Positions 28,492 to 64,000 are shown, numbered from the stretch's first letter. The stretch is 64,000 nt of DNA from a virus (IMGVR_UViG_3300023202_000336:1-64000), one strand, 5' to 3'. Numbers and translations are program-made. The notes: generated by a model not told the origin, from the letters alone.

Positions 28492-28956
28492 ATGCCGCTG
28501 AAGGGCGATTCCAAAAAGGTTATAGAATCAATGAAGGACACCTACGATTCTGAGCAGAAAGCTGAAGAAGTGTTCTACGCGACGGCGAATAAGGAGGATC
28601 GCGACCCTGAGACCTGGAAGAAAGAGGGCTCGACAGTGCTTAAGTCAGTTCTTCGCAAGAGAGCACAGCTCTCTCCTACTCAGTGGGGTATTTCTGGAGG
28701 CGTTGGTGGCGGTCTTGTAGGTGCTGGCATTGGTACTGCGATCGGAGCTCCTGCGAGTTTACTCTACTACATTATTCAGAAGGCCCGTGGCAGAGACCCC
28801 GAGTTTATTGATACGATTGCGAAGGGTACTGGGGTTGGAGCACTTACTGGTGGTGGTCTGGGCGCTGGTCTGGGTGCTTATAGGGGTGCTACGAGAGCGA
28901 ATGAGTTTAATCGACAGTATTCTCATGCATTGAGTAAGTCCCTTGGCCATGCGTAG
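28492..28956 (+). CDS. Gly-zipper protein, first of the K-x-A cohort
   Basis: AAAGGAG SD; KRA-Q; two GxxxG-rich hydrophobic segments. Confidence 0.8.
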   Translation: MPLKGDSKKVIESMKDTYDSEQKAEEVFYATANKEDRDPETWKKEGSTVLKSVLRKRAQLSPTQWGISGGVGGGLVGAGIGTAIGAPASLLYYIIQKARGRDPEFIDTIAKGTGVGALTGGGLGAGLGAYRGATRANEFNRQYSHALSKSLGHA

Positions 28957-29731
28957 AAGCGCTCCGCCGCGTCCTAAAGCGCAGCTTAAAAATCTCCTCA
29001 TTAAGAACGCAGCCTTTGCGAGGGGCCTGAGAAGAGCGGCAGTTGATATCGGCTCTCCGCTTCTGGGCGCAGGGACTCTTGCTGGTGGTGGTTACGCTAC
29101 TGGCGTTGAGAGTCCTCTGGATCTCGGTGCGCTCGCACTTCTCGGTGCGGCAGGCGGGACGAGAGGTGCTCGGCACACGTATATGGGCGGCACTCCTGGA
29201 GAGGCGCTTCGGCAGGCTCGAAAAGGTAGCTTCGATACCCCGCTCTGGAGAAAAGGGTTCGAGTACACCGATCCGAGTTCCGGCGTAACACGTAGGCTTA
29301 GCCGCGAGACTCCTGTCGAGGATATCGAAGCTGCTCTGAAGCCGCTTGCCTCTCGTCAGAGTGCGCGGGCGGTAACGCTTGGTGCGGGTGGGAAAGCCGG
29401 TATCGGCGCACTTTTCCCTGCGGGACGCGCGATTACTCGGACCTCTGAATTTATCGAAGAAGCTGGGGACGATATCGAAGAGATAACTCGGAAGTACCAG
29501 GAGGAGGGGGTGCCTCTTCGCCTCACGACCGGTGAGGGAGGGGAAAGTCTGGCCGAGGGAATGAAAAAGAGCCTGGAAAAAGGGCTGGAGAAAGGCTTCA
29601 CGGTGAAGCACGAGCTTCCGGGCATTCCCGAAGGCGTGAAACGATATGCGCCGTGGGTACTCGGAGGGGCAGGTGTACTTGGAGCGGCTGGGCTGTTGTA
29701 CTGGTTGCTACGAGATAAAGATAAAGACTGA
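28949..29731 (+). CDS. Gly-zipper, tail-anchored protein
   Basis: KNAA near the N-terminus; C-terminal hydrophobic helix plus RDKDKD. Confidence 0.75.
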   Translation: MRRSAPPRPKAQLKNLLIKNAAFARGLRRAAVDIGSPLLGAGTLAGGGYATGVESPLDLGALALLGAAGGTRGARHTYMGGTPGEALRQARKGSFDTPLWRKGFEYTDPSSGVTRRLSRETPVEDIEAALKPLASRQSARAVTLGAGGKAGIGALFPAGRAITRTSEFIEEAGDDIEEITRKYQEEGVPLRLTTGEGGESLAEGMKKSLEKGLEKGFTVKHELPGIPEGVKRYAPWVLGGAGVLGAAGLLYWLLRDKDKD

Positions 29732-29745
29732 TTACGGGGTGAGGC

Positions 29746-32700
29746 GTGGGCGAGTACGCTCCGGGTATACCTTCTCGTGGAGAATTCGGCGACCCCGCGC
29801 GCCTTCGACCCGGTCTTGCCGAGTGGGTCGTGCAGCAGCATCTCGCCGAGCGAGCCGGCCCGCACTACGATGTGCGGCTCGGAACGCCTGAGACGGGACT
29901 TTTATCGTGGGCGGCGAGGAAAGGACTTCCCGAGCCAGGGAAGCGTCACCTCGCTGTTCAGCAGCCGGTACATACGCTTCCGTATGCTGAGTTCGAAGGA
30001 CGTATTCCGAGCGGGTACGGGGCTGGCGAAGTCAAGAAGGCCGATCGTGGCGAGGTACTCATTCTCGACGCGAAGCCCGATAAGGTGAGCTTCGCAGTTG
30101 CTCATAAGAAGTTTCCGGAATATTTCACGCTGGTGAAACCGAAGGGGTTCGGTGGCGATCGTGACTGGCTTCTGATCAATACGACACCGACGAAGATCGT
30201 CGAGAACAAGAAGATCAGATACACGAAAGTGCCGGCTGAAGAAGTCGAGAAGATGTTCGATGAGCGCTATCTCGCTTCTGAGAAGATCGATGGCGCTTCT
30301 GCACTCGTCCGTTTCTTAGATGACGATATTGATATCATTTCCTACCGTGCATCGAAATCCGGTCGTCCGATCGTTCATACGCACCGCCTCTCTGGTACTC
30401 CGCTGAAGTCGGATGTCCCGAAAGAGTGGAAGAAACGGATACTGAAGGGAGAACTCTACGGTGTCCGGAAATCGACAGGTGAAGCGATCCCACCGCAGGA
30501 ATTGGGAGGGATACTGAATGCGTCGCTTGCTGAAGCGATTCGTAAGATGGGTGAGCAGGATGTGGACCTCAGAGTCGCCCTCTTCGACGTCCTCGGAGAA
30601 GAAGACAAGCCGTACCCCGTTCGGAAAGAACTCCTTGAGGAGGCGCTCAAGATACTTCCGGAGGACAAATTCCACCTCCCTCGAATGGCTGAAAGACCAG
30701 AGGAGATGCGTAAGCTCTGGGAGGAAATCGAAGCAGGCAAAAGCCCCTACACACGAGAGGGACTCGTCTTTCACCCGAGAGAAGGAGGAAAGCCGCTGAA
30801 GGTGAAGCGTACACCGGAGGCGAAGGTTGTCATTCGCGACATCTTTCCCGGGGCGGGACGTCTCGAAGGTACCGGTGCTGGCGGTTTCGAGTACTCGATC
30901 GAAGAGGATGGCCCGGCTGTCGGACGCGTTGGAACCGGTTTCACCGAAGAGATGCGCCGTAAGATGTGGAAGAACCCTGAAGAGTTTGTCGGGCGTGTCG
31001 CTCGGATACGAGCTCAGGATCAGTTCCCGCGTACCGGCGCGTTCCGAGCGCCGGCCTTTATAGCTCTGCATGAGGAGTACGAGAAATTGCCCGAAGAAGA
31101 GGGAGAGGAGAACAAGAAGCAGTTTCCGAAGGTAGCCGGTTTCTGGGCAGACGTCGCTATGGAGGCGCTCAAAGGCGGCCTCAGCGGCGCGTCACTCGGC
31201 GGGTATCTCGGGCACCAGGGGGCCTACGGTTGGCGTGGGTTCGAAGGGGACCCGAGCGCAACTGGTGGAGCTGTGCGGATGGGTCTCGCTGGCGGCGCGG
31301 CAGGCGCGGTTGCTGGTGGTATTTTCAATCGCATCCGCGAGTATTTGCGGGACACTGAGCTTGAGCGAAAGATGCGTGAGTGGGAAGAGCGGATGGAAGG
31401 GAAAAAGAAGAAGAACGAGAAAACTGCCGCGAAAGCTGACGTTGGTCTTTATCGAAACGACGTGAAGTATCCGACAGCGACCGGTGGACGGCCGGTACGT
31501 GCTTCGAATGCGGTGTTGATGGGGCAAATCGGGAAGCCTGAGCGTTATGCTGGTGGCCTTCCTGTTTATAACCAACAGGACGGCGAGCGTACGAAGATTG
31601 CCGAAATCATCGAGAAGGTAAAAGGAAAGATCGCTCAGAATCTTTACCCCGACGCCGGTGAAGACGCGCCTCCGGGCGTACAGCAGGAGATCGATCGTTT
31701 CAGGTCGATGCCCCCAGAGGATCGTGATCGCCCACTTCTTTACTATCTGCTCGGGGAGGGGACGCCTGATTACAAGATGTCGAAGGAGGACGCTGAGTAT
31801 CAGGAAGAGCCGAAAGGCGATCAGAAGTGTGGCAATTGTGAATTCGCGTACAAAAAGGTAGTCCGCAATCAGTTCATCTGTTCGAAGGTCGAGGGCGATA
31901 TTAAGCCGGAGGCATGGTGTAAATTCTGGGCTCCGAACGAGGAGAAGCAGAAGACCGCTGGCGAAGCGCAAAAAGCGCCTTCTGGTGGTAAACAGATTGA
32001 TTGGATCGTTTATGATTACGACGGTAACCTGCTTTGCATCGCATTAGATAATGAGGGCGAGGGTTGGAAGCTGACCGAGTGGGTTAATTTTGAGGGCCTC
32101 TCGCAGAATAAGTTACGAGAGATGCTTGACATGGGGTTTATGACCATGTTGGAGGCAGCGAAAGGGCGCGACAGTTACACCTACATCATAGGTAATCACG
32201 CCTTCGATTGGGCTGACGAGAACAGTTCCTACTTCAAGGAACTGTTAGGCGATAAGTTCGAAGGTAAGAACTCTGTTTCGATTGATATCGATTTGGACGA
32301 GTTCAGATCTCAAGTGGAGAAGCTGGTTGCGCCGAAGGATGTTACTTTCAAGAAGGAGGCCGGTGAGGAGCGCGAACCAGAAGTCGATAATCATTCGTCA
32401 GCGCCACAGCATAAGATGCGACCGAGAGCGGAACTTATCCTTTTCACGAAAGGCGGCGTCTATGCGATTGATAAGGGTGATTACCTCCTCTTTCCTGGTG
32501 GTGGTGTCGACGACGGTGAAGAGCCTCGCGATGCGGCTATTCGGGAGACGATCGAGGAATCGAATCGTCACCCGATCAATGTCGACCAGTCCGGTATCGT
32601 TGAAGCCGTCTGGCCTGAAGACAGTGGAAATGACTTTTGGGACGATTCGAAGTTCGATGGAGAACGGACGTACTTCTTTCTCGGCGTCGATTCCGGAGAA

Positions 32701-34221
32701 GCTGGAGTTACGCATGACGACCAGGAGAAGTTCGAAGTCAAGTCGTTCGATACGATCATCGATCGATTGGGTGAGCTTATCGAAGACGAGAGCCAGCAGT
32801 GGGCCCGGCGGAACAACGAGATTCGACGTGAACTCGTAACGCGAGCGAAAGAGAATGCGCAGCGAGACGAGGGGATGAAGCCGATGAAACGTGCGAGCAG
32901 TTTCGAGGACTTCGTGGTCAAACGGGCTCAGCAGTATCTCGATAAGGGGATGTTGCCGCCTCCGTGGCTCTACGATGAAGTGAAAGAGGGTCAGGAGTAC
33001 GATATCACGCAGCAGGAAGAAGTGGTCGGTGACGCACAGGCCCCGGCGCAGCCGGCGCCACCTCCGATGCAGCAGATTCAGCAAGCGACTCCCGAAGCGA
33101 GATATCAGATTTCAGGAGCGCCAAAAGATTTCGACGAAGCGTTTGCTGATCAACTGCGTCAGCAGGTCACGCCGCAAGCACAGCCGGGGGCGCAGGTCCA
33201 GCCACGAGCCCAGACAGCTCCTGGAGGCGGTGTCGGTGCGCCTTACAAGGCTGCACAGGCGATCACGCATTCAGGAGCGTTTCGTCAGAGTACCCCCGAG
33301 CTTGTTACTTCCGGTGGTTCCGGTGATACGCTTCAGGACGAGCGGGAAGAGTATGGTGTTCCGGAATCGATGATGACGGAGCCCGGAGACGTCGGTAAGT
33401 CGACGAACGCACCTGCGATCGGGACGAATATCGTTCCGCCGCTCCAGAATGATCTCGAGAAAGAAGCGTCATTGAAGGAACGGATACGCCGGAAAGTAGC
33501 TGAAGCTGTTCCGTCGCCCCTTCGCTCGCTTACTGTTTTGATGCAGATAAAGGCTGCCGCTATGGCGCTCGAGGAAGAGTTGCGCGTCGGAACGAAGGAG
33601 GAGCTGGAGCATACGTCCGATCTGGATGAGGCAGAAGAGATCGCGCGTGAGCATCTCGAGGAAGACAAGAACTACTACGATAAGCTCGAAGACGCTGGTC
33701 TTTTGGACGCGACTCGTAACAAGGAGAAGAAAACCGCTGACGTTGTCCAGCTGATGCCGAGGCGTGAACAGATCCTTTTCACCCCTGAGGGAAAGCTGGT
33801 AGCACGTCCGACTGGTCGACGTCGGTTCGAGCTTCCGCAGGAAGGGCCGGGCCGCCCTGTTCCTTACGAGGAGCGTATCCCGTTCATCCCTCCGACTGGT
33901 ATCGAAGAACCCGGCTTCCATGGATATGATGTCGGCCTCCATATTGGCGAGGTTCCAGAAGTTCCCGAAGGGTTCGAAACAGTCGACCCTGAAGAGGCGC
34001 TGAAGCAGTTCTACGGAAGCATGGGTATCGCTGAGAATCGGCCGTATCGGCAGCTCGATCGTGCACGTGCACGCGCGATCCTTCGCTACCTGAAGCGCAA
34101 GAAGAAGGAGCGCGAAGAGGAGCGGCAGGAGCCGGTCACGGACGAGCCGATGAATCGTCCAGAATTTTCTACAACCGAGGGGACATTTAGTGAGGCGCCA
34201 GGGGCTGTTCGGGACTATTGA
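29746..34221 (+). CDS. Polyprotein: LigD-type 3'-phosphoesterase, ATP-dependent DNA ligase, Gly-zipper, HiPIP-like, unknown domain, Nudix, DUF5661-like
   Basis: QQH-x7-HYDVRL...H.LPY (PE); EKIDG, KGELYG, LFDVL, EGLVF, LKVK, VGTGF (ligase/OB); C-x2-C...C...WC (HiPIP); GGGVDDGE-x7-RETIEES (Nudix); EHT.D...A.EIA.EHL.ED.NYY.KL (DUF5661). Confidence 0.9.
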   Translation: MGEYAPGIPSRGEFGDPARLRPGLAEWVVQQHLAERAGPHYDVRLGTPETGLLSWAARKGLPEPGKRHLAVQQPVHTLPYAEFEGRIPSGYGAGEVKKADRGEVLILDAKPDKVSFAVAHKKFPEYFTLVKPKGFGGDRDWLLINTTPTKIVENKKIRYTKVPAEEVEKMFDERYLASEKIDGASALVRFLDDDIDIISYRASKSGRPIVHTHRLSGTPLKSDVPKEWKKRILKGELYGVRKSTGEAIPPQELGGILNASLAEAIRKMGEQDVDLRVALFDVLGEEDKPYPVRKELLEEALKILPEDKFHLPRMAERPEEMRKLWEEIEAGKSPYTREGLVFHPREGGKPLKVKRTPEAKVVIRDIFPGAGRLEGTGAGGFEYSIEEDGPAVGRVGTGFTEEMRRKMWKNPEEFVGRVARIRAQDQFPRTGAFRAPAFIALHEEYEKLPEEEGEENKKQFPKVAGFWADVAMEALKGGLSGASLGGYLGHQGAYGWRGFEGDPSATGGAVRMGLAGGAAGAVAGGIFNRIREYLRDTELERKMREWEERMEGKKKKNEKTAAKADVGLYRNDVKYPTATGGRPVRASNAVLMGQIGKPERYAGGLPVYNQQDGERTKIAEIIEKVKGKIAQNLYPDAGEDAPPGVQQEIDRFRSMPPEDRDRPLLYYLLGEGTPDYKMSKEDAEYQEEPKGDQKCGNCEFAYKKVVRNQFICSKVEGDIKPEAWCKFWAPNEEKQKTAGEAQKAPSGGKQIDWIVYDYDGNLLCIALDNEGEGWKLTEWVNFEGLSQNKLREMLDMGFMTMLEAAKGRDSYTYIIGNHAFDWADENSSYFKELLGDKFEGKNSVSIDIDLDEFRSQVEKLVAPKDVTFKKEAGEEREPEVDNHSSAPQHKMRPRAELILFTKGGVYAIDKGDYLLFPGGGVDDGEEPRDAAIRETIEESNRHPINVDQSGIVEAVWPEDSGNDFWDDSKFDGERTYFFLGVDSGEAGVTHDDQEKFEVKSFDTIIDRLGELIEDESQQWARRNNEIRRELVTRAKENAQRDEGMKPMKRASSFEDFVVKRAQQYLDKGMLPPPWLYDEVKEGQEYDITQQEEVVGDAQAPAQPAPPPMQQIQQATPEARYQISGAPKDFDEAFADQLRQQVTPQAQPGAQVQPRAQTAPGGGVGAPYKAAQAITHSGAFRQSTPELVTSGGSGDTLQDEREEYGVPESMMTEPGDVGKSTNAPAIGTNIVPPLQNDLEKEASLKERIRRKVAEAVPSPLRSLTVLMQIKAAAMALEEELRVGTKEELEHTSDLDEAEEIAREHLEEDKNYYDKLEDAGLLDATRNKEKKTADVVQLMPRREQILFTPEGKLVARPTGRRRFELPQEGPGRPVPYEERIPFIPPTGIEEPGFHGYDVGLHIGEVPEVPEGFETVDPEEALKQFYGSMGIAENRPYRQLDRARARAILRYLKRKKKEREEERQEPVTDEPMNRPEFSTTEGTFSEAPGAVRDY

Positions 34222-35025: not shown

Positions 35026-35028
35026 TCC

Positions 35029-35832: not shown

Positions 35833-38703
35833 ATGCCTTCCAATTTCGCTTTCAGCCCGACTCATAGCTCGCTCATCCCGACGATGAGTAACCAGCCCTT
35901 CGGTGCCGAGCAGCTGACGCCGAATTTCCGAAACTTCCCGACACCGTGGCTCGATTATTCGACGGTCGCGGTGCCCGATAACCACGAACTGGTGATGTGG
36001 TGGGCCCAGTACTTGTGGATCATGGATGGGAACTTCAGAACGGCGATGGAGCGCGTCGCGGCACATTTTGTCACGACCATCGACTTCCCTGACCTTGAGC
36101 CGGGGGAGGAGTCTGTTTGGAAGGACCTTTTCCTTCAGTTCCTCGATTACCGCGCTGAGCTTATGGCTGCGGCGATGGACTACCTGTGTTTCCGAGGCGA
36201 TACGCGGGTGGTGGCTCGCGACGGGATCTATGAGATCTGCGAGCTTGAGGGGAAGGAAGTAGACGTCTTGTCAGAAGGCGGTGTCTATAGGCCGGCCAAG
36301 TTCAAGCGGTTCGGGATCCAGGAGCTTATGGAGGTCGAGTTTAGTGACGGGCGCACCGTGCTCGCTACTCCCGAGCATCAGTGGATCGTTGAAAGTAACG
36401 GTGGATCTATTCGTGTCCCGACTACCCAGCTGGCCGGTCGGCGTATAGAGCGTACCGTAGCTGAGCGTCCCGAGCGCGGTAACGGTTATTCCGAAGGAGT
36501 CCGTCACGGGTTCGTTTTTGGAGATGGATCTACTTATAACAAGCATCGAGAGAATCAGTTCTCGGTAGCGAACTTCTACGGTGATAAGACGGAACTGCTC
36601 CCCTATTTCGAAGGGTTCGGAGGGGAGCCGCGTAAATACGAGTACAGTTACGGAGCTGCCGTTATTAAGATACACGGGCTTCCGGCTCATTATAAACAGC
36701 TCCCGGATCCCGAAGTGAGTGCTGAGTATTGGTACGGATTCGTAAGTGGATTTCTTGCGGCAGACGGGTCTGTCGATACGCATGGTTGTGTTATTCTCAC
36801 TCAGGAGGCGAAAGAGACGCTCGCATCGATAGTCGAACAGCTTCCGCGTATCGGAATGGTCGCAGGACCGATCCGTGGTTACACTCAGGAAAGGACTTTG
36901 CCTGAGTACGACGGAGAGCAGAGGTCTGGTGAGACCACGATGCATTACGTGACGCTTCTGAAGCGTTTCATGCAGCCGGAAGATTTGCTTCTTTCAGGGC
37001 ATCGAGCTAAGTTCGAGGACAAATGGAAAGCGACCAATTACGGTAAATATATTCACGTGAAGAGCGTGAAAGAGACCGGCATCGTCGAAGATGTATACTG
37101 CTGTGTCGAGCACGAGACACACTCTTTCGTTATCGAAAACGGGATACTTACCGGCAATTGCTATGGGAATCTGGTTACGACGCTTTACCTTCCGTTCCGC
37201 CGTTACATGCGGTGCAGGCGGTGCGCACTCGAGCAGCCTATCGAGCGACTCAGCTATAATCTCCAGTTTTCCGCATCACCGCCGCATCTGATCTGGCGCC
37301 GCCGTGCCGATTGTCCGCGTTGCGGCGATAGTGCTCCTTACGAAGTAGTCGATCGTCGTGATAGCGATCTCGGGAAGGTCCGCATTAATCGTTACGATCC
37401 TTCTGATATTGAGATCGCCTGGAACAGGCATAGTCATAAGAAGGATATTTACTGGAGGATTCCCGAGGAGGACCGTCGAGATATTCTCGGAAAAGCCCGT
37501 ATCCATATCGATACGACTCCGCTCGAGGTTCTCGAGGCGGTTGCTGTCAACGGGAGACTTCGTTTCGAAGATAACATGGTCTTCCATCAGGCCGAACCTA
37601 ATATCTCCGGGATCAAGACGAGAGGCTGGGGTATTCCCCGGTCTATCTCGAACTTCAGGACCGCATGGCTTCAGCAATTGATCAACAAGCTCGATCAGGC
37701 AGTTGCGATCGATTACACGCTCGGTATCCGGCTTATCAGCCCGGCTGAGACGTCCGGATCTACTGACCCGCTTCAGACGCAAGGGCTTGAAAACTTTGCC
37801 TCGAAGATGAGTTCGATCGTTCAGGAGCACCGGGCGAACCCGGCGTCGTACCATACGTCGCCGTACCCGGTAAACTATCAGTTCCTCGGTGGCGAAGGCA
37901 GCGACGTCATGCCGGCTGATAAGATCAAGTTCCGTCAGCAGGAGTACCTGAACCAGCTCGGCGTGCCGCTCGAGTATCATCAGATGAATCTGCAGTCGCA
38001 GGCAGCGCCGATGTCGCTTCGGATGTTTGAAGCGTTCTGGCAGGGTATTCCGAGCTTCTACAATCGCCTCCTCGAGTGGGTCACCACGACGCTCTCGCGC
38101 GTGTACAACCTCGAGGATACACGCGTTCAGATGCAGAAGACCACGATCGCTGATGATCTCGAGCGTAAGGCGGTACTGTTGCAGCTGATGTCCGCGAACC
38201 AGCTCAGCCCGGAGACGGCGCTGCGTCCGTACGGCATCGATGCGCACGAGGAAGTGAAGAAGGTCTTCTCGCACGAGGACTACGTGGCGAGATTGCAGCG
38301 TGAGGCGGAAGAGCGTCAGCTGAATCGTGAAGAGATGGGTGTCATGAAGGGCATGTCGGCGCACCCGACTCCGTCGCAGATGGCGATGCAGCAGCAGGGG
38401 GCTGCTGCCGGGGGGATGCAGCCGCCTCCTCCTGGCACCCCGATGGGCGGCGTTCCGGCCGGCGGCCTCCCGCAGATGGGCCCGACCCCGCAGAGTCTCG
38501 AGGCTATGGGCGAGCAGGCCGAAATGATCGCTCAGCAGCTGGTGGGTCTTGATGAGTATACTCGGAAGCAGGAGCTCAAGGCGCTGCGGGAGTCGAATAA
38601 GGATCTGCATGCGCTTGTGACGAAGAGCATGGAGGAGATTCGGAGTGCTGCCCGCTCGGAGGGTGGACACATGCTCCTTTCACAAGGGGCAGGGGGCGTG
38701 TAA
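35833..38703 (+). CDS. Portal-like protein with intein
   Basis: Spliced junction DYL-CYGN matches the portal YGN motif; helical body; Gln/Pro/Gly-rich tail; located in the head block. Confidence 0.65.
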   Translation: MPSNFAFSPTHSSLIPTMSNQPFGAEQLTPNFRNFPTPWLDYSTVAVPDNHELVMWWAQYLWIMDGNFRTAMERVAAHFVTTIDFPDLEPGEESVWKDLFLQFLDYRAELMAAAMDYLCFRGDTRVVARDGIYEICELEGKEVDVLSEGGVYRPAKFKRFGIQELMEVEFSDGRTVLATPEHQWIVESNGGSIRVPTTQLAGRRIERTVAERPERGNGYSEGVRHGFVFGDGSTYNKHRENQFSVANFYGDKTELLPYFEGFGGEPRKYEYSYGAAVIKIHGLPAHYKQLPDPEVSAEYWYGFVSGFLAADGSVDTHGCVILTQEAKETLASIVEQLPRIGMVAGPIRGYTQERTLPEYDGEQRSGETTMHYVTLLKRFMQPEDLLLSGHRAKFEDKWKATNYGKYIHVKSVKETGIVEDVYCCVEHETHSFVIENGILTGNCYGNLVTTLYLPFRRYMRCRRCALEQPIERLSYNLQFSASPPHLIWRRRADCPRCGDSAPYEVVDRRDSDLGKVRINRYDPSDIEIAWNRHSHKKDIYWRIPEEDRRDILGKARIHIDTTPLEVLEAVAVNGRLRFEDNMVFHQAEPNISGIKTRGWGIPRSISNFRTAWLQQLINKLDQAVAIDYTLGIRLISPAETSGSTDPLQTQGLENFASKMSSIVQEHRANPASYHTSPYPVNYQFLGGEGSDVMPADKIKFRQQEYLNQLGVPLEYHQMNLQSQAAPMSLRMFEAFWQGIPSFYNRLLEWVTTTLSRVYNLEDTRVQMQKTTIADDLERKAVLLQLMSANQLSPETALRPYGIDAHEEVKKVFSHEDYVARLQREAEERQLNREEMGVMKGMSAHPTPSQMAMQQQGAAAGGMQPPPPGTPMGGVPAGGLPQMGPTPQSLEAMGEQAEMIAQQLVGLDEYTRKQELKALRESNKDLHALVTKSMEEIRSAARSEGGHMLLSQGAGGV
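36187..37158 (+). mobile_element. Intein with LAGLIDADG homing endonuclease (324 aa)
   Basis: C1 of CFRGDT; TPEH block B; GFVFGDG and GFLAADG motifs; ends FVIENGILTGN with +1 Cys. Confidence 0.92.
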
Positions 38704-45010: not shown

Positions 45011-45018
45011 AGGACGTT

Positions 45019-50544: not shown

Positions 50545-50587
50545 TTGTCCATCTGGTACTGTCGCTACTCGAGAATAGGATACGTAC

Positions 50588-53271: not shown

Positions 53272-53502
53272 ATGCGCATTCACAATGAGGAACGGTTGAT
53301 GATCGTCCGTATCGTCCATGAGAACGGGAAAATCTATGATATGCCGGTCTCCCAGGTCTCGGTACATACTGAGAACGGCGACCCGTGTATGCTCGCTTAC
53401 GAGCACGCAAATCTGATAGTTTGTTCCCATGTGAACGAAAAGGACTTTGAACGGCAGTGTGCGCAGCTGAAAATCGACCGCATCGAGGTGCCCCATGCCT
53501 GA
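53272..53502 (+). CDS. Small hypothetical protein
   Basis: Abuts the previous stop; overlaps the next start. Confidence 0.65.
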   Translation: MRIHNEERLMIVRIVHENGKIYDMPVSQVSVHTENGDPCMLAYEHANLIVCSHVNEKDFERQCAQLKIDRIEVPHA

Positions 53503-53809
53503 CTGTGCGGTAGAGCAAGAAGCAATCGAGCGTCTCAGGTCATTAACCTGTGATGCGATGATGCATTATTTCGAAACTTTCGATGAGTATCCGACGCATC
53601 TGTACGTGAATACTGGGTCTGATGCTGAGAGGATCGTGAGATCAGCGCTTGAGAGGGTCGGTACCACCGAATTTCTTTTTGCGTTGACGGTTGTTCTCCG
53701 GAAGTTCTCTTTCGGGAAATCTGATCTTTTCGTCGGTGAGGACCGGTACGCCTCGGATATGCGGCGCTGCGCGGTGTTGAGCTATCGAAATTACAGTTCA
53801 GGCTCGTGA
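53495..53809 (+). CDS. Small hypothetical protein
   Basis: GAGG SD; ends 3 nt before the beta'-C gene. Confidence 0.65.
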   Translation: MPDCAVEQEAIERLRSLTCDAMMHYFETFDEYPTHLYVNTGSDAERIVRSALERVGTTEFLFALTVVLRKFSFGKSDLFVGEDRYASDMRRCAVLSYRNYSSGS

Positions 53810-53812
53810 GAC

Positions 53813-55711: not shown

Positions 55712-58015
55712 ATGCCCAACACGAGTGAGACGGCTCTCGAGAAGACCTTTTCCGACCTGGCGTATTCACATCTCCGGGACCAGAGCCAATCGCTTCTGGA
55801 TTATCTGGTCGGATTCCAGCTTCTGAAGTCCGAGGACGACGGTGAGCGCGCGGTCGGGATTTTCGGTTTCGAGGTCGATAACGACTATTACTACGCCCCG
55901 ATCTTCTTCCTGAACGGAGAGATTCGTGGGCTCGATACGCTTTATTCGGTGAAATCGGATCTCTTTATGCCGATTACCGAGGGCTGGGTCAATCACGTGA
56001 TCAATCGTCGGCAGGCGAATCTCGGCGATTCTGACCGCCGTGACCGTCGTGCTCGTGGCATCAACTACCCGAACTACACCCGATTGAAGATCATTCCCGG
56101 CGGGTCTGGCTCGGTGAATCTGAAGTTGGCGTCTGAGCAGCGTGAGGCGATGATCACGGCGATGACTTCGGAGCGTGAGATCCCGAGACTCAACCTGATT
56201 CAGGGCCTCAAGGAGGCCGGTGCGACCGAGTTCTTCAAGGAGGCGATGGAGCGTCATCCGAGAATGCTGGAGGCGTTCAATCAGTTCTACAATGTTTTCG
56301 ATCTCGAGCCTCAGCGGAAGCAGGCGGCCGAGGAGAAAGATCTTCCCGAGCCGGTGACGATCATTACGTCGATGACGGACGAGGGGGTCGATCAGCTGAC
56401 CGACGAGCAGCGTGAGACGCTTCTTGAAGGCGGCGAGGTTGCGATCGATAACCGTCCGGAAGTCTCTCGTTCGATCCTGTACAAGAAGGAAATCAAGCAG
56501 GTACTCGAGAACCCGACTAAGGGCGGCCTCTACGATGTCCTGTGGTACGATGGTTCGGTCTATCCGGCGCTGATCGCCCCGACCGGATCGTCGAAGAATG
56601 AGGTCACGGTCTATTGCCCTGAATTCGATATGCATTGCGAGATCGACAGTCGCTGTGTGTTCATCGCCCGTCGTTACGGCGATGAAGAGTTGCGCCGCTG
56701 GCTCGAGGATAACGCGGTGCCTGCGAGCGAGGCCCGCCCTGGGCAGTCCGGTATTTTCGTGAGCACCGAAGGCGAAGGGACTGGCGCTTTCTGTATCGAG
56801 GGGGCGACCCAGGGCGTCGACGGTTTGACGATTTACATCGTGCATGACACCTATGAGATGAGGGCGCTCGACGGCCATAGCGGACTGAACGTGATAGGTG
56901 GAGCTTCGCGCGGCAATAACGGAAATCCGACGCCGAATATGTATAAGGAACTGTCTTTCGGCGGAAGCGGGATGCATCACATGATCCCCGGGTTTTCGAA
57001 TCGCCCGGCGGAGGACCCGAACTGCCGCGTCAGTTCGATTATCGTCGCTCCCGAAGGCGGGTCGAATCCTCGGTACTCGAAGGACAAGTGCATCGTCAAT
57101 GACAAACACTTCTACTTCTTGAAGCTGAACAACTTCACGCTTCGTAAGCCTGAGTACGATGACCTTAATACGGCTCGGAGAGAGGAAGAGAAGTACAACG
57201 CGCCGAAGTACGACGTTGTCTTGAGCAAGACCGATTTCGGAAACTACGATACGCTTGCTGAAGGCCTCGATAAGGTTGCGGGCGACCTCAAGTCGTGGAA
57301 CGACGGAGATCAGATCGTGATCGACAGTGAGATCGGTCGTTACTCGATGAACAAGACTGCCGCCTTCAGACACCTGATGGTCGATCAGGGGCTTGGAGAA
57401 GATGACGCGAAGTTGGTGCTCAAGGAAGCCTCGCGTCAGCCGAGTACCTACAAGATCAAGAAGGTCGCAGCGTCCGAGACCCAGCTTCTTCAGCTTCCTG
57501 ATGTCGATGATACCGATGTTGGAGGGCTGCTCTCGTCGTTCCATCGGACACAGGTCCCGTATGCCACGGCGAATCAGGCTCAGACGATCGATAACCGTGA
57601 GTTCTATCGCTACTACTCTCCGTACGGGAGTGGTGGAGCGCCGGATAATGAGACGGACACGTTCTCCGTTCTTGAAGAGGCCGGAAAGACGGGTCAGAAG
57701 GATGTCTTCGATGCAGCGGCGCTTGCGTCGTTGATCAAGAATCATAACCCGACCGATCTCGTCGATCGGTTCCTTCCGACGATCGTTTCCGGGATGGACC
57801 GTATCGGCCGGATGCTGTTCCTGATCTACTGGCACTACGAGGACTTTGAAGAGCGCTACGGGGAGAACGACCTCAGCGAGCTGATCGATAATCTCCGTTC
57901 CGTCTTCGAGCAGCTGGGAGATGTGATCATCTCGGCGAAGAAACGGACGCTTTCTGGCGATCCCGAACATTACGGAATGGAAGCAGCTCCGCTTCTTGAA
58001 GGCGGAATGTCGTGA
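55712..58015 (+). CDS. Large K-x-A-cohort virion/head protein
   Basis: KLAS, KQAA, KVAG, KTAA, KEAS, KVAA. Confidence 0.8.
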   Translation: MPNTSETALEKTFSDLAYSHLRDQSQSLLDYLVGFQLLKSEDDGERAVGIFGFEVDNDYYYAPIFFLNGEIRGLDTLYSVKSDLFMPITEGWVNHVINRRQANLGDSDRRDRRARGINYPNYTRLKIIPGGSGSVNLKLASEQREAMITAMTSEREIPRLNLIQGLKEAGATEFFKEAMERHPRMLEAFNQFYNVFDLEPQRKQAAEEKDLPEPVTIITSMTDEGVDQLTDEQRETLLEGGEVAIDNRPEVSRSILYKKEIKQVLENPTKGGLYDVLWYDGSVYPALIAPTGSSKNEVTVYCPEFDMHCEIDSRCVFIARRYGDEELRRWLEDNAVPASEARPGQSGIFVSTEGEGTGAFCIEGATQGVDGLTIYIVHDTYEMRALDGHSGLNVIGGASRGNNGNPTPNMYKELSFGGSGMHHMIPGFSNRPAEDPNCRVSSIIVAPEGGSNPRYSKDKCIVNDKHFYFLKLNNFTLRKPEYDDLNTARREEEKYNAPKYDVVLSKTDFGNYDTLAEGLDKVAGDLKSWNDGDQIVIDSEIGRYSMNKTAAFRHLMVDQGLGEDDAKLVLKEASRQPSTYKIKKVAASETQLLQLPDVDDTDVGGLLSSFHRTQVPYATANQAQTIDNREFYRYYSPYGSGGAPDNETDTFSVLEEAGKTGQKDVFDAAALASLIKNHNPTDLVDRFLPTIVSGMDRIGRMLFLIYWHYEDFEERYGENDLSELIDNLRSVFEQLGDVIISAKKRTLSGDPEHYGMEAAPLLEGGMS

Positions 58016-58026
58016 AATAGGAACCT

Positions 58027-58248: not shown

Positions 58249-58277
58249 CCTCATAAAACCTTACAGGGAGTAGATTC

Positions 58278-58469
58278 ATGGCTTTGACCAAGAAGGCGGC
58301 TGCTGAGAAGCTGGCGCAGGATGCTCAGAACGATCGCGAGAACGCGTTCGAGTTCGGGTTCTACAAGATCGCGCAGGATCTCGGCCTCAGCGAGGACGAG
58401 TACTCGAACTTCTATCAGGCAGGACTCGACAAGTTCGCGACCGCGTACGAGCAGGAAAACAGTAAGTAA
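58278..58469 (+). CDS. Small K-x-A-cohort protein
   Basis: GGGAG SD; MALTKKAAAEKLAQ; FEFGFYKIAQ resembles FRFGFVKAAR in 43146. Confidence 0.75.
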   Translation: MALTKKAAAEKLAQDAQNDRENAFEFGFYKIAQDLGLSEDEYSNFYQAGLDKFATAYEQENSK

Positions 58470-58473
58470 TTCG

Positions 58474-59265
58474 ATGCTGATAGCGCCGAGCCGCCCTGAC
58501 TGGCGTTGGGCGCGAGTTGCCGAGCTTTCTCAGTATTCGGATACGCGAGCCCTCGCTCGTCTTTCGAAAGACGATCAGCAGACGCAACGTGCGTTTCGCT
58601 TCAAGCGTGCTTTCGACCGTGGTGCCGGTGACGAGTATCCAGAACTACTCGCAGCGCACGATGTTTTCGTCGAAGACCAGGACCGCCGCGGGATTCTCGA
58701 AGGGTTTCTGCTGACAGGGGCTTCGAACGAGGAGATTAGCGAGCATAACTGGGTCGACCCGAAAGTTGTTCAGGACTATCACGATATCTTCTTTGATGTC
58801 CGAGAAGGCCTGAAACACCCGGGATGGATCTGCTCAGCGGTCTTCAACGGGATGCCGCATAAAGGTGCGCACGCCGGTGATAAGATCGGGATGGCACATC
58901 GTTTCGCTTGGTTCGGCGGATTCGACCTCTTCAAGCGGATGGTGGTACAGGGGCTTGCCCCCGCTGAGACTCACGAGGTGCTTAGGAGCATCACTCGGGA
59001 CGTGCTCATGAAGAACTCGGTCGAATCGGCGCTGAGCTATGGGAGTCGCGGCGATATCGCTCACGAGTACATGCGGATGGCCTTTAACAAGGATAACTTC
59101 GAAGACGATGACGCGAAATCGATGGATACCGATTACGAGAAGGCAGTCGACGCGTTCTTTACAGGGATCGGTATCTCCGTTGCGGATGCAACTGATTCGC
59201 GTAATTTGGAAGCACCGAAACAAGAGCCCCGCGAGGCCGATTACGAGGTAGTCAAAGATGGCTGA
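58474..59265 (+). CDS. Hypothetical protein
   Basis: ATG 4 nt after the previous stop; RPDWRW N-terminus; overlaps the next start. Confidence 0.75.
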   Translation: MLIAPSRPDWRWARVAELSQYSDTRALARLSKDDQQTQRAFRFKRAFDRGAGDEYPELLAAHDVFVEDQDRRGILEGFLLTGASNEEISEHNWVDPKVVQDYHDIFFDVREGLKHPGWICSAVFNGMPHKGAHAGDKIGMAHRFAWFGGFDLFKRMVVQGLAPAETHEVLRSITRDVLMKNSVESALSYGSRGDIAHEYMRMAFNKDNFEDDDAKSMDTDYEKAVDAFFTGIGISVADATDSRNLEAPKQEPREADYEVVKDG

Positions 59266-60634
59266 TAATCTTATGAGCGACCAGCGGCATACTGAACTGA
59301 TGAAGGCAGCTGAAGCCTGCATCGGTCTGATGAACGTTGGTGTTCGCCCGAATCCGGCGCTTGCGAAGATCGCTGACGATCATCATATGAACGAGAAGGA
59401 AGTCTCGTTGGTCAGTCATGCGGTGAATAACTCGAAGCAGCTGGCGCACCTTCAGACGACTTCTCCCGAGAAGAGAGAAGAGGAGTTTCCGATTACCGAC
59501 GCCGAAGAGGTGAAGGTGATTCGGACGCAGCCTTTGACGAATGCTGAGGACGACCCAGGTGATCGGTACGGGCCTCAGGACGAGAAGGGTGAGACGACTA
59601 AACAGAAGTATCATGAGAATGATGCGCTCGATATCAAGGAGGAGCTGGATAAGGAAGCTGCCGCCTCTTATAGCGAGAACTCGGACTTCCGCCTTCAGCC
59701 GTCCCAGCCTGATGCCGTTTCGACGCTGAGATCAGCTTGGGGCCTCGAGAAGGGGGTTCCGAAGCTCGCTGAGTACGAGGATCCCAACCCGTTTGCGAAG
59801 CTCGACTACTATCGGATTGGTGTGGAAGAGGCGCGACTCAAGTACGCCGCTGCACGTGATCAGGCCATTTCAGCGATTAATTCGCTTTCGGAGAGCTTTC
59901 GTCGAGTCGATGCGCCGCGTTTCGCTGAGTTCGAGAAAGCGGCGGCTGCAACCGGCGTGTCCCGGCGGACGCTCGATTTCATCTACGAAGCCGGTCGTCT
60001 CGAGAAGTTCGGGGAAGAGCGTGCCGATTTGACCCAGAAGCTGGCGTCGCCGCTCTATATTACTTCGAAGACGAATGAGTATGTTCAGAAGAGTGTATGC
60101 GCGGACAATTTTCTCAAAGAAGCGATCGACGCGTCAGCGGCGCTAAGTGTAATCAAGAAGAGGGCTGAAGCTGCTTCTCCGAAGATCGCTGGAGATACTC
60201 CGACCGGAGTTCCTGGTGACATCTTCAAGATCGACCTCGACCCGCAGCCTGCGGAAGAGGCTCTCTCGAGAGCTCCGTCTGAGTTTCTCGGTCTCGGAGA
60301 GGACCCGGTTGAGGGGATCCGTGGTATCGCTGGGATAGGTGAAGCTGAAAAAGATAAGAAAGAGCCTCGTCTTTCGCAGGAAGCGACGCAGGAGATGGCA
60401 AACTTCGAGGCTCGTGCCGTGCTCGAAGAGTTGATGGAAGACCCAGTGGTCGGCGGGTATAGCATGCCGGAAGTGGTTGAAGCCTATAACGCCGCGATGT
60501 CGGTGAATCCGAACTTTGGAAAGGCGGCGTTGACGAGCTACATGCGTCAGCATCTGGCCACCGAAGGCGCGGTTCCGCTCGATCTCCAGCTGAGAGCTTC
60601 TCCGCGCACGCCTGCTGGGGTGGGAGGAGACTAA
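59258..60634 (+). CDS. K-x-A-cohort head protein
   Basis: MKAA, KEAA, KAAA, KLAS, KRAE, KIAG. Confidence 0.8.
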   Translation: MADNLMSDQRHTELMKAAEACIGLMNVGVRPNPALAKIADDHHMNEKEVSLVSHAVNNSKQLAHLQTTSPEKREEEFPITDAEEVKVIRTQPLTNAEDDPGDRYGPQDEKGETTKQKYHENDALDIKEELDKEAAASYSENSDFRLQPSQPDAVSTLRSAWGLEKGVPKLAEYEDPNPFAKLDYYRIGVEEARLKYAAARDQAISAINSLSESFRRVDAPRFAEFEKAAAATGVSRRTLDFIYEAGRLEKFGEERADLTQKLASPLYITSKTNEYVQKSVCADNFLKEAIDASAALSVIKKRAEAASPKIAGDTPTGVPGDIFKIDLDPQPAEEALSRAPSEFLGLGEDPVEGIRGIAGIGEAEKDKKEPRLSQEATQEMANFEARAVLEELMEDPVVGGYSMPEVVEAYNAAMSVNPNFGKAALTSYMRQHLATEGAVPLDLQLRASPRTPAGVGGD

Positions 60635-60635
60635 C

Positions 60636-61619
60636 ATGCCTTTCGCAGAGGTCGCTGCCGACGTTCTGACTGATCCTCAGAAGCAGATGAAAGTTGCCGC
60701 GGAGGTGGGTGACGAGGAGGCGCAGTCTGCTGAGGAGCGTGCGAAGAGTCGTCGTCTCAAGGCGATTCTTTATACGTTGGCGGGGATCGGTACCGTAGGG
60801 CTTGGTTCTTACTTTCTTCTCAAACACCCCGATAAGGTCGCTGAAGGGGTGAGAAAGGTTTTTGGTGGAGAGGAAGAGCCAGAGCAGACCGCTGCAGAAC
60901 GTTTGAAAGGAGCGGTTACCTCTCCGAGTATAGCGGGCGGTCTTGCTTACCTCGGTGCCGGAACTCGAACTGGCGCTTCGTATCTTCCGAGGACGCTTCA
61001 GAAGTTTCCGTTCTTTACGGGTGACCGTGCGCTTTCGCTCGAAAATCTTCGAAAGCATATTGCCGCGGTCTCAACACCTGAAGGTCAGACAGCAGCCGCG
61101 CAGGCGAAGACCCCTGATCAGAGGCTCGGGGCTCTTATGACGGATCTTCCAGAGCTGGAGCAGCGCAGAAAGTTGCATAAAGAGCTGGGAAGGGCTCGAG
61201 GCAGAGAGGGGTCGATATTGAATCTCATCGCTGCTGATCCGAAACTTAAGCGCATAGATGAGATCTTGCAACTTCCTCGTGCGCAACAGCAGGCGCTGAT
61301 AAAGAAATTGAAGGCCCCGGCAAGGACCATTCCCGGTCTTTCCGGCCTCCAAGACGTACGGTTCATGAAGAACCTTGAGCGCGGCTTAGGAGAACTCGCA
61401 GCACAGGAAGGAAGGAAAACTCCTGGAGCAGGAGAGCGCGCGAGAGCTGTTAGGCGCTTTCTTGGAGCGGATCCTGAGACGCTTCACGGTGCGCTGAGGT
61501 CGTACCGGAAGGCACGTGCTCCGAGAAGTTTCTGGGGAGGCGTCGGGCGAGCTGCTGTTGTTCCGACGGCAACTATGGTCCCCGGTGCGCTTGAGACTTA
61601 TGAGGCATGGACTGACTAA
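60636..61619 (+). CDS. Gly-zipper K-x-A-cohort protein
   Basis: GGAGGA SD; KVAA; ILYTLAGIGTVGLGSYFLL hydrophobic helix. Confidence 0.78.
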   Translation: MPFAEVAADVLTDPQKQMKVAAEVGDEEAQSAEERAKSRRLKAILYTLAGIGTVGLGSYFLLKHPDKVAEGVRKVFGGEEEPEQTAAERLKGAVTSPSIAGGLAYLGAGTRTGASYLPRTLQKFPFFTGDRALSLENLRKHIAAVSTPEGQTAAAQAKTPDQRLGALMTDLPELEQRRKLHKELGRARGREGSILNLIAADPKLKRIDEILQLPRAQQQALIKKLKAPARTIPGLSGLQDVRFMKNLERGLGELAAQEGRKTPGAGERARAVRRFLGADPETLHGALRSYRKARAPRSFWGGVGRAAVVPTATMVPGALETYEAWTD

Positions 61620-63523
61620 TGATTACGAAACTGATCCTTCCGCAGTCGTTTAGTTTCGATGGTCCAGCCGCGTCGTTGGTGCCACTTCATCGCGTCGGAG
61701 GGGCTGATTCGCAATGGTTGCGGAAGCATGCGAGTCATGGAGTCTTTCATGACCTCCTTCGAGACCTGAAGCCGATTCCTGGTAAGTCCGTTATTCATGT
61801 ACTCGCGGTCGGTGACGAGGAGCTGTGGGGCCCGAACCGAAACGGCGACGGGTTCAGTCGTGAAGATAATGTGACCGCGCATCGGACGTTCAAAGACATC
61901 GGTCACGTCTTCAGGCACCACCAGAATGATGATCCGTTCAAGGCCGTCGGTGATATCATCGCTACGGCGCATAACGAGAATATGTCTCGGATCGAGTTAC
62001 TTCTCGGGCTCGATAATACGAAGTGTCGCCGTGAGATCGAAAAGGTCGATAACGACGAAGATCTCCCTGTGAGCATGGGTTGCTTTACGGCCGGTCACTT
62101 TCTGACGCTCGAAGACGGGTCGGTTATTAGGTTAGAGGACGCAGTCGAAGGTCAGCAGGTATTGACGCATTTAGGTAATCGGCTACCTATTACACACGTT
62201 TTTAATCAGGACCCGTATACCGGCACGTTGTATACTCTGAAGGCCCGAACGGTTGAGGACGTTGAGGCTACGGCCGAGCACCCGTTTTTTGTAGTGCGTC
62301 AGGAGCATATTGTTCACACGGGCCGTAAAACACGCCGCGTGGATCCGTCTAAACTTAATCAACTTGATGTTACGTTAGACGCTGACTGGGTTGCTGCGAA
62401 GGATCTTCGGGTAGGCGACTACTTGGTTACTCCCGTGAACCTTGAAGAAGAGCTTCCGGATTACATTCCCCGTACCGACACCCCTGTTCTCGCAAGGCAC
62501 ACGACCAAGGCCTGTCGAGACTTGGAGACTACTCACCGCGGCGGAAGTAGGTTGCGTGTAGATGATTTCATTCTTACACCTATCCGTGATATCTTGTCGC
62601 GAGACGTTGTAGACGAGCCCGTTTACAATATTGAGGTACAGAGTGATAACTCGTACGTGATTAATGGCATCGCGGTTCATAATTCTCTTCAGGATTTCGA
62701 TGTTTGTTCTCATTGTGGTCATAAGGCGCCAACGGCTTCGGATCATTGCGAACATATCAAGAAGATGCTCGGACAGGTCTTGGAGGACGGTACCAAGATC
62801 TACATGAAGAACCCGAAGCCGAAGTACTTCGATCTCAGCCTCGTTTTCAAGCCGGCTGATCGGATCGCGTACACGCTTCGGAAGGTTGCTGCCGCTGGTG
62901 GCGAAGTCATCGGGGGCCACGAACTGGCTGACATGGTTGGTCTCGTCGATTGGACGCATCCGAAGATGGCTGCGAAGCGGACGCTGGCGGCGATGTATAA
63001 AGAGATCCCGATGACGATCCGTCAGGTGACACGTCCGAAGGACGTCCATCCGAATGTCGCTGCGGAGCTCAAAAAGCAGGCGAATCTCCACGGAATCGAC
63101 CAGTTGCTCGGATTCCTGCATTCGAACGGGTGGCTCCTGAGCCCACGTGACTTCGCCGAGGTGATCGGGCACCCCGAGCCTGAGAAGTGCGAAATGGCGG
63201 TTGCGAAGCACGATGGTATGGACGATTTCCTCGACGATCACAGCGAAGTCAAATCGTTGGAAGTCCCTGTCATACAAGACCCTATGACTTTGAGCGGGCG
63301 AGCTCTCGAGGAGCTTGAGGGCGCCTGTTCGATGCATCCTGACAAGGTCCAGAAGCGGGTGATTTCGATTACCGTGACCGGACCTTCAGAGAAGACTGCT
63401 CAGATCGAGGATACGGCTGAAGCGAAGGGGTTGGCAGCGCTGTACAACCACTATAAAGTAGCATTCGCTATGCAGTTCCAGTCTCGGAACGATATCCTTC
63501 GCAACGTCGCAGCTACGTTCTGA
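61619..63523 (+). CDS. Prohead (maturation) protease-like protein with mini-intein and Zn finger
   Basis: NRNGDGF, FRHHQN...GDI (candidate catalytic His) and VSMG (candidate catalytic Ser) resemble HK97/T4-clan proteases; CSHC...HCEH; followed by an acidic scaffold-like gene. Confidence 0.7.
   Translation: MITKLILPQSFSFDGPAASLVPLHRVGGADSQWLRKHASHGVFHDLLRDLKPIPGKSVIHVLAVGDEELWGPNRNGDGFSREDNVTAHRTFKDIGHVFRHHQNDDPFKAVGDIIATAHNENMSRIELLLGLDNTKCRREIEKVDNDEDLPVSMGCFTAGHFLTLEDGSVIRLEDAVEGQQVLTHLGNRLPITHVFNQDPYTGTLYTLKARTVEDVEATAEHPFFVVRQEHIVHTGRKTRRVDPSKLNQLDVTLDADWVAAKDLRVGDYLVTPVNLEEELPDYIPRTDTPVLARHTTKACRDLETTHRGGSRLRVDDFILTPIRDILSRDVVDEPVYNIEVQSDNSYVINGIAVHNSLQDFDVCSHCGHKAPTASDHCEHIKKMLGQVLEDGTKIYMKNPKPKYFDLSLVFKPADRIAYTLRKVAAAGGEVIGGHELADMVGLVDWTHPKMAAKRTLAAMYKEIPMTIRQVTRPKDVHPNVAAELKKQANLHGIDQLLGFLHSNGWLLSPRDFAEVIGHPEPEKCEMAVAKHDGMDDFLDDHSEVKSLEVPVIQDPMTLSGRALEELEGACSMHPDKVQKRVISITVTGPSEKTAQIEDTAEAKGLAALYNHYKVAFAMQFQSRNDILRNVAATF
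62081..62683 (+). mobile_element. Mini-intein (201 aa, no endonuclease)
   Basis: C1 of CFTAGH; TAEHPF block B; ends VYNIEV...YVINGIAVHN with +1 Ser. Confidence 0.93.
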
Positions 63524-63560
63524 GGATTCATTAGAACGTTAACCGCGTAAGGGAACGATC

Positions 63561-64000
63561 ATGACTAAGAGTCGAAACCTGCTGGACGAGCTGGATGGCC
63601 TCATCAAGCGTGCAGGCGCGAAGAAGGCCGAGGAGCTCGAGAAGGCGGAACAGGAAGAGCAGGCTGGAAACGGCGAGGAAAAGACCGCCGGCGAGACCAG
63701 CCGTAAGATGGACAACGAGGACGACAACACCACCGCTGCGACGACCGGGGAACAGGCCGCCGCGAACAAGCGTGACAACCGCGATCACTACTCGGCTGGA
63801 AGTACCGATAAGGGTGCTGAGACGAATCCGAGTGGCGAAGCGGTTGACATGAGTTCGGACATGGCCGACGCCGTCGATTCTGACGGGCAAGAAGGCCCCG
63901 AGCCCGGTCACGTCGCCGAGGGTGGTGTCGGTTCCGAAGGGCCTCAGGGCCCCGGCGAGGAGACCGACGTCCCGAATAAGGCCGGTTGGGATAGCGGCGC
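63561..64000 (+). CDS. Scaffolding or capsid precursor N-terminus (3'-truncated)
   Basis: AAGGGA SD; open to the window end; highly acidic and disordered; KRAG, KKAE, KTAG; directly after the protease. Confidence 0.65.
   Translation, partial: MTKSRNLLDELDGLIKRAGAKKAEELEKAEQEEQAGNGEEKTAGETSRKMDNEDDNTTAATTGEQAAANKRDNRDHYSAGSTDKGAETNPSGEAVDMSSDMADAVDSDGQEGPEPGHVAEGGVGSEGPQGPGEETDVPNKAGWDSG

Follow-up and report, generated by a model that had tools for sequence, protein, structure and literature searches.

A conserved hydrophobic-x-Lys-x-Ala motif in the head proteins of a large phage is probably the recognition site of its own prohead protease

We analysed the first 64 kb of a 180,134-bp phage genome (IMGVR_UViG_3300023202_000336:1-64000; 64,000 nucleotides (nt), hereafter the window), on which nearly all genes lie on the plus strand, with regard to a short motif, lysine-any residue-alanine (K-x-A), that recurs in the head proteins and to the prohead protease encoded among them. 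The core head module covers 55.7–67.3 kb. It encodes (coordinates are given for plus-strand genes) a 767-amino-acid (aa) acidic virion protein homologous to gp218 of Salmonella phage Arash (55712–58015), a 314-aa protein, a 458-aa acidic helical head protein (59258–60634), a 327-aa basic protein resembling a glycine zipper (60636–61619), the prohead protease including an intein (61619–63523), a 493-aa acidic, scaffold-like protein with an isoelectric point (pI) of 4.2 (63561–65042), which starts in the window and ends beyond it, and 146-aa and 221-aa proteins followed by a 312-aa major capsid protein. From the protease through the 493-, 146- and 221-aa proteins to the capsid protein, the order is kept in nine related contigs, in Arash and in Vibrio phage D69, and purified Arash virions contain homologues of all these core-module head proteins (PMC10585845). 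Arash and Vibrio phages D69, D181 and D148 are the nearest cultured phages, at 25–35% protein identity; metagenomic relatives at 40–70% identity are numerous, and neither megablast with the head module nor tblastn with the 767-aa protein found a match in cultured phages.

Upstream, a hairpin on the plus strand at 28420–28457 (a G+C-rich stem of 9 bp and a loop of 10 nt, followed by TTTTT), which was read by eye, is likely a terminator that divides the tail-fibre block from the block downstream. It was missed by a consensus terminator scan because its loop of 10 nt exceeds the 8 nt that the scan allows. A preliminary description of this DNA had set a terminator ahead of the block, listed K-x-A motifs followed by a small residue, and closed the block with a protease-like gene and an acidic scaffold that bears the same motif; all of these are present.

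To quantify the motif, the genome was divided into six blocks and expected counts were obtained from composition-matched shuffles. In the core head module, K.A (where the dot stands for any residue) occurred 61 times against 24.8 expected (z 7.8), and the excess grew as the motif was extended: K.A[AGS] was found 30 times against 6.5 expected (z 9.8), [LIVMF].K.A 32 times against 5.5 (z 11.9) and [LIVMF].K.A[AGS] 16 times against 1.4, an 11-fold excess. The ratio of observed to expected K.A (O/E) was 1.12 at 1–28 kb, 0.88 in the RNA polymerase block at 45–55.7 kb (16 against 18.2) and 1.07 in the 80 kb of non-structural genes at 100–180 kb. It was also 1.07 at 28–45 kb, yet [LIVMF].K.A[AGS] appeared there 7 times against 1.8 expected. 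When all 1,200 residue pairs (gaps of 0–2) were ranked blindly, K-x-A came first in the core module (61 against 24.7, z 7.3) and L-x-K second (z 4.7), and the motif is therefore best written as hydrophobic-x-K-x-A. The T4 motif [LI]-x-E and the phiKZ motif [SAG]-x-E (O/E 1.05) were at expectation in the head module.

A coarser comparison of K.A[AGS] between 28.5–65 kb (39 observed, 17 expected) and the tail block (13 observed, 5.6 expected) fails to tell the two apart, because O/E is 2.3 in both. The preliminary description had expected the whole range to exceed the tail block in a composition-matched test, and this it does not do; the comparison becomes informative only once the blocks are split. 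That most proteins after position 28418 carry the motif was too broad a statement, because the excess is concentrated in 55.7–67.3 kb, K-x-A is absent from the portal and no excess is seen in the RNA polymerase subunits. The reported position of motifs near N-termini is borne out: K-x-A lies within residues 3–60 in 14 of 26 head-block proteins and in 31 of 135 proteins elsewhere (Fisher p = 0.003). The equal ratios in the coarse test, together with the Ala- and Lys-rich make-up of the proteins concerned, would suit a motif without a function of its own that merely follows from a helical composition rich in Ala, Lys and Glu. However, shuffles of whole proteins and local shuffles in windows of 10–40 residues gave the same core-module result and never reached the observed counts, the reverse pattern A.K was depleted in the module (14 against 25), and R.A, K.G and K.S showed no excess there.

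Conservation was compared genome-wide with two complete relatives (G001 and G002), which are ∼50% identical. In the head proteins, Lys and Ala of K-x-A were jointly conserved at a rate of 0.49 against a background of 0.245 (permutation z 5.9), a value reached in none of 20,000 permutations. The corresponding rates were 0.15 against 0.13 in the tail-fibre genes, 0.30 against 0.225 at 67–100 kb and 0.13 against 0.20 in the non-structural genes. Across eleven orthologue sets of 9–10 sequences each, mean joint conservation was 0.48, where independent conservation would give 0.20, and K-x-A had 21 sites conserved in at least 75% of sequences, the most of any residue pair. Its behaviour is that of a short linear motif, with constant K and A amid variable flanking residues and insertions or deletions. 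Among 269 conserved instances, the position two residues before Lys was Leu in 39% and hydrophobic in 65%, and the residue after Ala was, in falling order, A, S, E, Q or G. Such position-by-position conservation, across lineages only 25–50% identical, is not what composition would produce, and we give the compositional explanation next to no credence.

The same signature was found in distant lineages. When residue pairs were ranked blindly in the head modules of Arash and D69, K-x-A came first in both (46 against 21.1 expected and 51 against 22.4 expected, respectively), and it was the second most enriched pair in Eggerthella phage LE2-3, whose protease is related. Sites in Arash and D69 are regular, of the form [LMIV]-x-K-x-A-[SA], number up to 10–11 per 300-aa protein and flank small repeated units. 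The major capsid protein carries K-E-A at residues 25–27 across lineages only 28% identical, within L-[VT]-K-E-A-G at residues 25–28 in Arash and D69 and as K-E/A-A at residues 25–27 in the present phage and eight relatives. As a control, the blind test was applied to T4 genes 20, 67, 68, 21, 22, 23 and 24, where I-x-E ranked first and L-x-E third; with the T4 core proteins alone, these two ranked first and second. K-x-A was unremarkable in the T4 head genes. I/L-x-E is the experimentally established cleavage motif of T4 gp21, and because the blind test recovers it, the statistical signature seen here is that of a prohead-protease motif.

The candidate enzyme is encoded at 61619–63523. Its sequence matched PHROG 18299 ('head maturation protease') weakly (E 1.6e-5); no Pfam protease family was found at E ≤ 0.01, and a profile of 62 protease sequences gave no match at E ≤ 10 among PDB sequences. 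Because neither Pfam nor PDB gave a sequence-level match, the link to T4 gp21 is made by fold comparison only. An AlphaFold 2 (AF2) model of an intein-less orthologue (P0047; predicted local distance difference test score 85) has an N-terminal domain (model residues 15–210) whose best match was T4 gp21 (5jbl_B; Z 10.9, root-mean-square deviation 3.0, 139 of 164 residues; Foldseek probability 1.00). The next best matches were herpesvirus proteases (varicella-zoster virus, pseudorabies virus (PrV), herpes simplex virus (HSV) and human cytomegalovirus (HCMV); Z 6–8.5). The modelled N-terminal domain is of the gp21/assemblin type, the fold of the MEROPS S77/S21 clan. His101 (nt 61919–61921), Ser152 in V-S-M-G (nt 62072–62074) and three Cys residues are invariant in 62 homologues. 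The His and Ser are 51 residues apart, similar to the spacing of His85 and Ser140 of T4 gp21, which we take to be its catalytic pair; His101 and Ser152 are candidate equivalents of that pair. The domain is followed by a cluster of Cys residues, which probably binds metal, then by a linker and a helical C-terminal domain.

The protease gene is interrupted directly after Ser-Met-Gly by a 201-aa mini-intein (residues 155–355; nt 62081–62683, plus strand). The insert matches PF14890 (E 7e-11, 42.6 bits against a cut-off of 35.8), begins with C155 and ends with H354-N355, followed by S356. In eight of nine orthologues the sequence runs through this site without a break and is ∼200 aa shorter, and intein-less orthologues are 426–434 aa long. 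With a splicing domain, the terminal residues of an intein and absence from orthologues, residues 155–355 are, by sequence, an intein.

Conserved K-x-A sites occur in about eight proteins that begin in the window (at 28943, 29746, 51505, 55712, 59258, 60636, 61619 and 63561) and in four beyond it (at 65073 and 65557, in the capsid protein and in a 317-aa protein at 96617–97570). The preliminary description had counted more than a dozen marked proteins; the set is smaller and otherwise distributed. The protease is itself among them, with conserved K-x-A at its own residues 36, 422, 449, 486, 592 and 613. Apart from the N-terminus, the low-confidence segments of the orthologue model are residues 35–37 and the inter-domain linker 214–229, each of which contains a conserved K-x-A (K34 and K220), and further sites lie in coil at 247 and 389/392. 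The 767-aa protein, whose Arash homologue gp218 is abundant in virions (PMC10585845), has conserved sites at residues 138, 176, 203, 521 and 571 (nt 56123, 56237, 56318, 57272 and 57422). Those at 203 and 521 are kept in 8–9 of nine orthologues, and site 203 lies within an indel-rich, Pro-flanked stretch.

Eleven K-x-A are present in the 458-aa protein, six of them conserved in both close relatives; sites lie at residues 16, 37, 132, 169, 227, 261, 287 and 309 (nt 59303–60190). In an alignment of 43 sequences at 32–48% identity, K132, A134, A229 and K261 are invariant or nearly so, and the region around residue 309 is an unalignable stretch in which nearly every homologue has a K-x-A of its own. 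The AF2 model of this protein places sites 132, 169, 261 and 309 in loops or weakly predicted parts. The 493-aa scaffold-like protein carries 13 K-x-A, eight of them conserved, including L-I-K-R-A-G at residue 16 (nt 63606–63614), and two sites lie within 22 residues of its C-terminus. Two small basic proteins have N-terminal sites: the Gly-rich protein at 28943–29731 (plus strand) has L-I-K-N-A-A at residue 21 (nt 29003–29011), where K-x-A-A is kept in the single orthologue found, and the 327-aa protein has M-K-V-A-A at residue 19 (nt 60690–60698), where K-x-A is kept in the L004 orthologue. Farther downstream, the 317-aa protein (96617–97570, minus strand; L041:2617-3570) contains 18 K-x-A, of which eight are conserved in both relatives, with conserved sites roughly 27–29 residues apart. 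No cultured-phage homologue or family match was found for it, and it may serve as another protease substrate, as a core protein or as a decoy. A 250-aa protein of pI 10 at 69537–70289 opens with ∼10 tandem K-K-T-A-K-K repeats, like histone H1 or AlgP; these K-x-A, outside the head module, are probably unrelated to the motif.

The 1491-aa multi-enzyme protein at 29746–34221 (plus strand) has matches in Pfam and PHROGs; the Pfam modules are a LigD-type 3'-phosphoesterase, an ATP-dependent ligase, a HiPIP-like module (weak), a Nudix domain and DUF5661. Only one of its 14 K-x-A falls within a Pfam domain, and sites between modules lie at nt 31129, 31420, 31951, 32353, 32887, 33247, 33460, 33550 and 33730. 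BLAST segments common to this protein and the two complete relatives begin or end within four residues of KTAG736, KEAG870, KRAS1048, KAAQ1168 and KTAD1329. The relatives combine homologous modules differently, with K-x-A at matching junctions; G001 has a single K-T-A-G-E where the present phage has an extra 130-aa module between K-T-A-G-E and K-E-A-G-E. Judged from its sequence, the 1491-aa protein is a probable polyprotein. The preliminary description had put motifs at linkers and domain borders, which fits this protein and the protease and is mixed for the 458-aa protein.

Together, these data make it probable that hydrophobic-x-Lys-x-Ala is the recognition and cleavage motif of the phage's own prohead protease, with the cut made after Ala. 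We place the cut there because the P3-x-P1 architecture is common to the T4, phiKZ and herpesvirus motifs and a small residue follows; that the motif is cut, at which bond and at which of its sites, we infer from its enrichment, conservation and placement and from the protease fold. The protease with Lys at P3 and Ala at P1 that the preliminary description had proposed came through the computational tests run, with cleavage as an inferred step and with a hydrophobic P5 that had gone unnoted. In the model that we favour, the intein would splice out beside the catalytic Ser, and the protease would become active only then. It would cut after Ala, with Lys as P3 and the hydrophobic residue as P5, and would free itself in the prohead from its own helical C-terminal domain. 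Acidic scaffold-like proteins would be chopped into small pieces, N-terminal propeptides, possibly including residues 1–27 of the major capsid protein, would be trimmed, and the enzyme modules of the 1491-aa protein would be separated.

Several observations weigh against this reading. Neither proteomic nor N-terminal sequencing evidence of cleavage was found within the clade. Searches in the Arash virion study were ordinary tryptic ones, and the reported coverage is near-complete for several motif-rich proteins (PMC10585845); such coverage could mean that uncleaved copies are present, although the figures themselves look unreliable. The residue after Ala, described earlier as small, is loose, since E, Q, D and T are also common there beside A, G and S. 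For some conserved K-x-A the role is clearly a structural one: K-P-A-D-R of the protease core and K-L-A-T-A-D of RNA polymerase beta' are examples, and the conserved K-x-A in the 87%-identical capsid protein was grouped with them; because of such instances, not every conserved site is to be read as functional. Little is conspicuous at 28–45 kb besides the 1491-aa protein and a few N-terminal sites. Roughly half the conserved sites lie in confidently predicted helices, among them sites 16, 37, 227 and 287 of the 458-aa protein, and the hydrophobic positions −2, +1 and +5 from Lys would also suit an amphipathic helix.

The last two points are what a docking or packaging signal would predict, that is, a short amphipathic-helix motif that binds a common partner, such as the inner capsid face or the scaffold core, for entry into the prohead. 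The scaffold and the protease also carry the motif at their very C-termini, and in other phages and in herpesviruses coat-binding helices are found at just these ends. However, a docking motif need not recur 8–13 times in one protein, nor does it account for sites in Pro/Gly-rich unalignable linkers (site 203 of the 767-aa protein, site 309 of the 458-aa protein and the protease linker 214–229) or at module junctions of the multi-enzyme protein, and the T4 motif that leaves this statistical signature is one of cleavage. We therefore regard docking as unlikely to be the explanation of the motif. The two roles would be compatible, as T4 capsid-targeting sequences have the cleavage motif at their end.

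An invariant Lys with a hydrophobic residue nearby also recalls the psi-K-x-E motif of SUMO. Instead of being a protease site, or in addition to it, the Lys could be the acceptor of ubiquitin-like conjugation by the E1/E2 cassettes of the phage, with head and scaffold proteins being tagged during assembly; a bacteriophage would then encode a modification code resembling the SUMO consensus. ThiF/E1-like proteins above the Pfam cut-off are encoded by all five phages considered, with two gene copies in the present genome (124104–124745 and 132154–132696) and in G001 and G002 and a single copy in Arash and in D69. This co-occurrence carries little weight because only five related phages are involved. 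There is no evidence of an E3 or of targeting, a strict Ala with a small next residue is typical of a protease S1/S1' pocket and not of a known E2 consensus, and the motif is present within linkers of the protease itself and at positions expected of N-terminal propeptides. Conjugation at the Lys seems to us highly improbable.

Cleavage by the prohead protease, the preferred reading, may be compared with known systems. To our knowledge, all characterised T4-type phage head proteases cut after Glu. No published description of K-x-A specificity was found in the literature on such proteases, and a multi-omics paper on phage G contained no cleavage data. T4 gp21 (PDB 5jbl) is the best structural match; its system is paralleled here by the spacing of the candidate His and Ser (∼50 residues), a P3-x-P1 motif architecture, numerous sites in acidic proteins of the scaffold or core, probable propeptides at N-termini, likely self-processing and the same enrichment signature in the head module. 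The T4 motif has Glu at P1 and Leu/Ile at P3, whereas the motif here has Ala at P1, Lys at P3 and an additional hydrophobic P5, and unlike gp21 the present protease has a Cys cluster, a 220-aa helical C-terminal domain and an intein. The phiKZ gp175 motif is S/A/G-x-E. The giant phages with gp175 or its counterpart SPN3US gp245, which have a virion RNA polymerase and ejected proteins, share with the present phage a large, enzyme-filled head that holds a multisubunit RNA polymerase; unlike in phiKZ, [SAG]-x-E shows no enrichment here, the capsid protein is of HK97 type and small (312 aa), and the Arash-like lineage is unrelated in sequence. In phiKZ-like giant phages, the gp21-type protease processes a subset of head proteins and many stay uncut (PMC10052503).

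The assemblins of herpesviruses (HSV/PrV pUL26 and HCMV UL80a) have the same fold and offer a second parallel, in which P1 would again be Ala followed by a small P1'. Herpesvirus proteases cut (V/L/I)-x-A before S at their release and maturation sites. Here, Lys at P3 is not herpesviral, no evidence of a Ser-His-His triad was seen, the sites are far more numerous, and the scaffold is a separate gene and not nested. In pUL26, a linker with a cleavage site joins the protease domain to a C-terminal part that is helical and scaffold-like, and a second site lies close to the C-terminus (PMC4498786). The protease at 61619–63523 resembles this layout, with its domain, site, helical domain and site near the C-terminus.

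If the reading is true, a whole clade would have switched to cleavage after Ala with P3 occupied by Lys, a specificity new to the gp21/assemblin fold. This specificity would be closest to the Ala|Ser sites of herpesviruses and would bear on the divergence of these proteases. The motif would also predict where a dozen proteins, whose functions are unknown, begin and end in their mature form; the phage group concerned is large and mostly uncultured, and Salmonella phage Arash and oyster-associated Vibrio phages belong to it. For the phosphoesterase-ligase-Nudix protein of 1491 aa, enzymes released in the capsid could reach the host together with the virion RNA polymerase.

The portal (35833–38703, plus strand), which lacks K-x-A altogether, served as an internal negative. 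Its residues 445–848 match the Arash 'portal protein' by tblastn, residues 99–444 match inteins of phage ribonucleotide reductases, and orthologues are ∼330 aa shorter; the intein-like insert scored 28.3 bits with Pfam Intein_splicing, which is under the cut-off. From its position, the gene at 55712–58015 had been considered as the portal; this was rejected, as the portal is encoded at 35833–38703 and the protein annotated as portal in Arash is gp204 and not gp218. At 45001–55687 (plus strand), Pfam and PHROG matches identified genes of a multisubunit RNA polymerase of the virion type, with small genes between them; in these genes and in most proteins at 34–55.7 kb, nothing above chance was seen, and the few sites are not conserved. 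Tail-fibre and minor-tail genes lie at 19–24 kb.

Intein-type inserts were seen in three essential virion genes, those of the portal (residues ∼99–444), RNA polymerase beta (∼802–1160, with LAGLIDADG) and the protease (155–355). The relatives L004 and L005 are without the RNA polymerase and protease inserts, and L006, L007 and L009 carry inteins in the beta' gene or the protease. In Eggerthella phage LE2-3 (L042, MW679026), a gene at 8848–11961 annotated 'tRNA synthetase' is a homologue of the prohead protease, and the deposited annotation looks wrong. This homologue is broken just after S-M-G by an insert that starts with Cys, near the intein position of the present protease, and the insert is probably an intein as well.

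For the open reading frame (ORF) at 58321–59265, the first 52 codons, which are rich in Ser, Arg and Thr, have no counterpart in any orthologue, and alignments begin at residue 53; its true start is probably an internal Met. Small, mostly basic proteins encoded at 28492, 28943, 38733, 43146, 44171 and 60636 are Gly-rich and have hydrophobic stretches resembling glycine zippers. They may be membrane-active ejection proteins, and the homologue of one of them in L009 has a faint match to Gly-zipper_YMGG. Within the RNA polymerase block, an ORF of 1847 aa (45001–50544, plus strand) comprises beta, with its LAGLIDADG intein, fused to the N-terminal half of beta', and the C-terminal part of beta' is encoded separately, 3 kb downstream (53813–55687, plus strand). 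This split beta/beta' arrangement is common to Vibrio phage D69 and metagenomic relatives.

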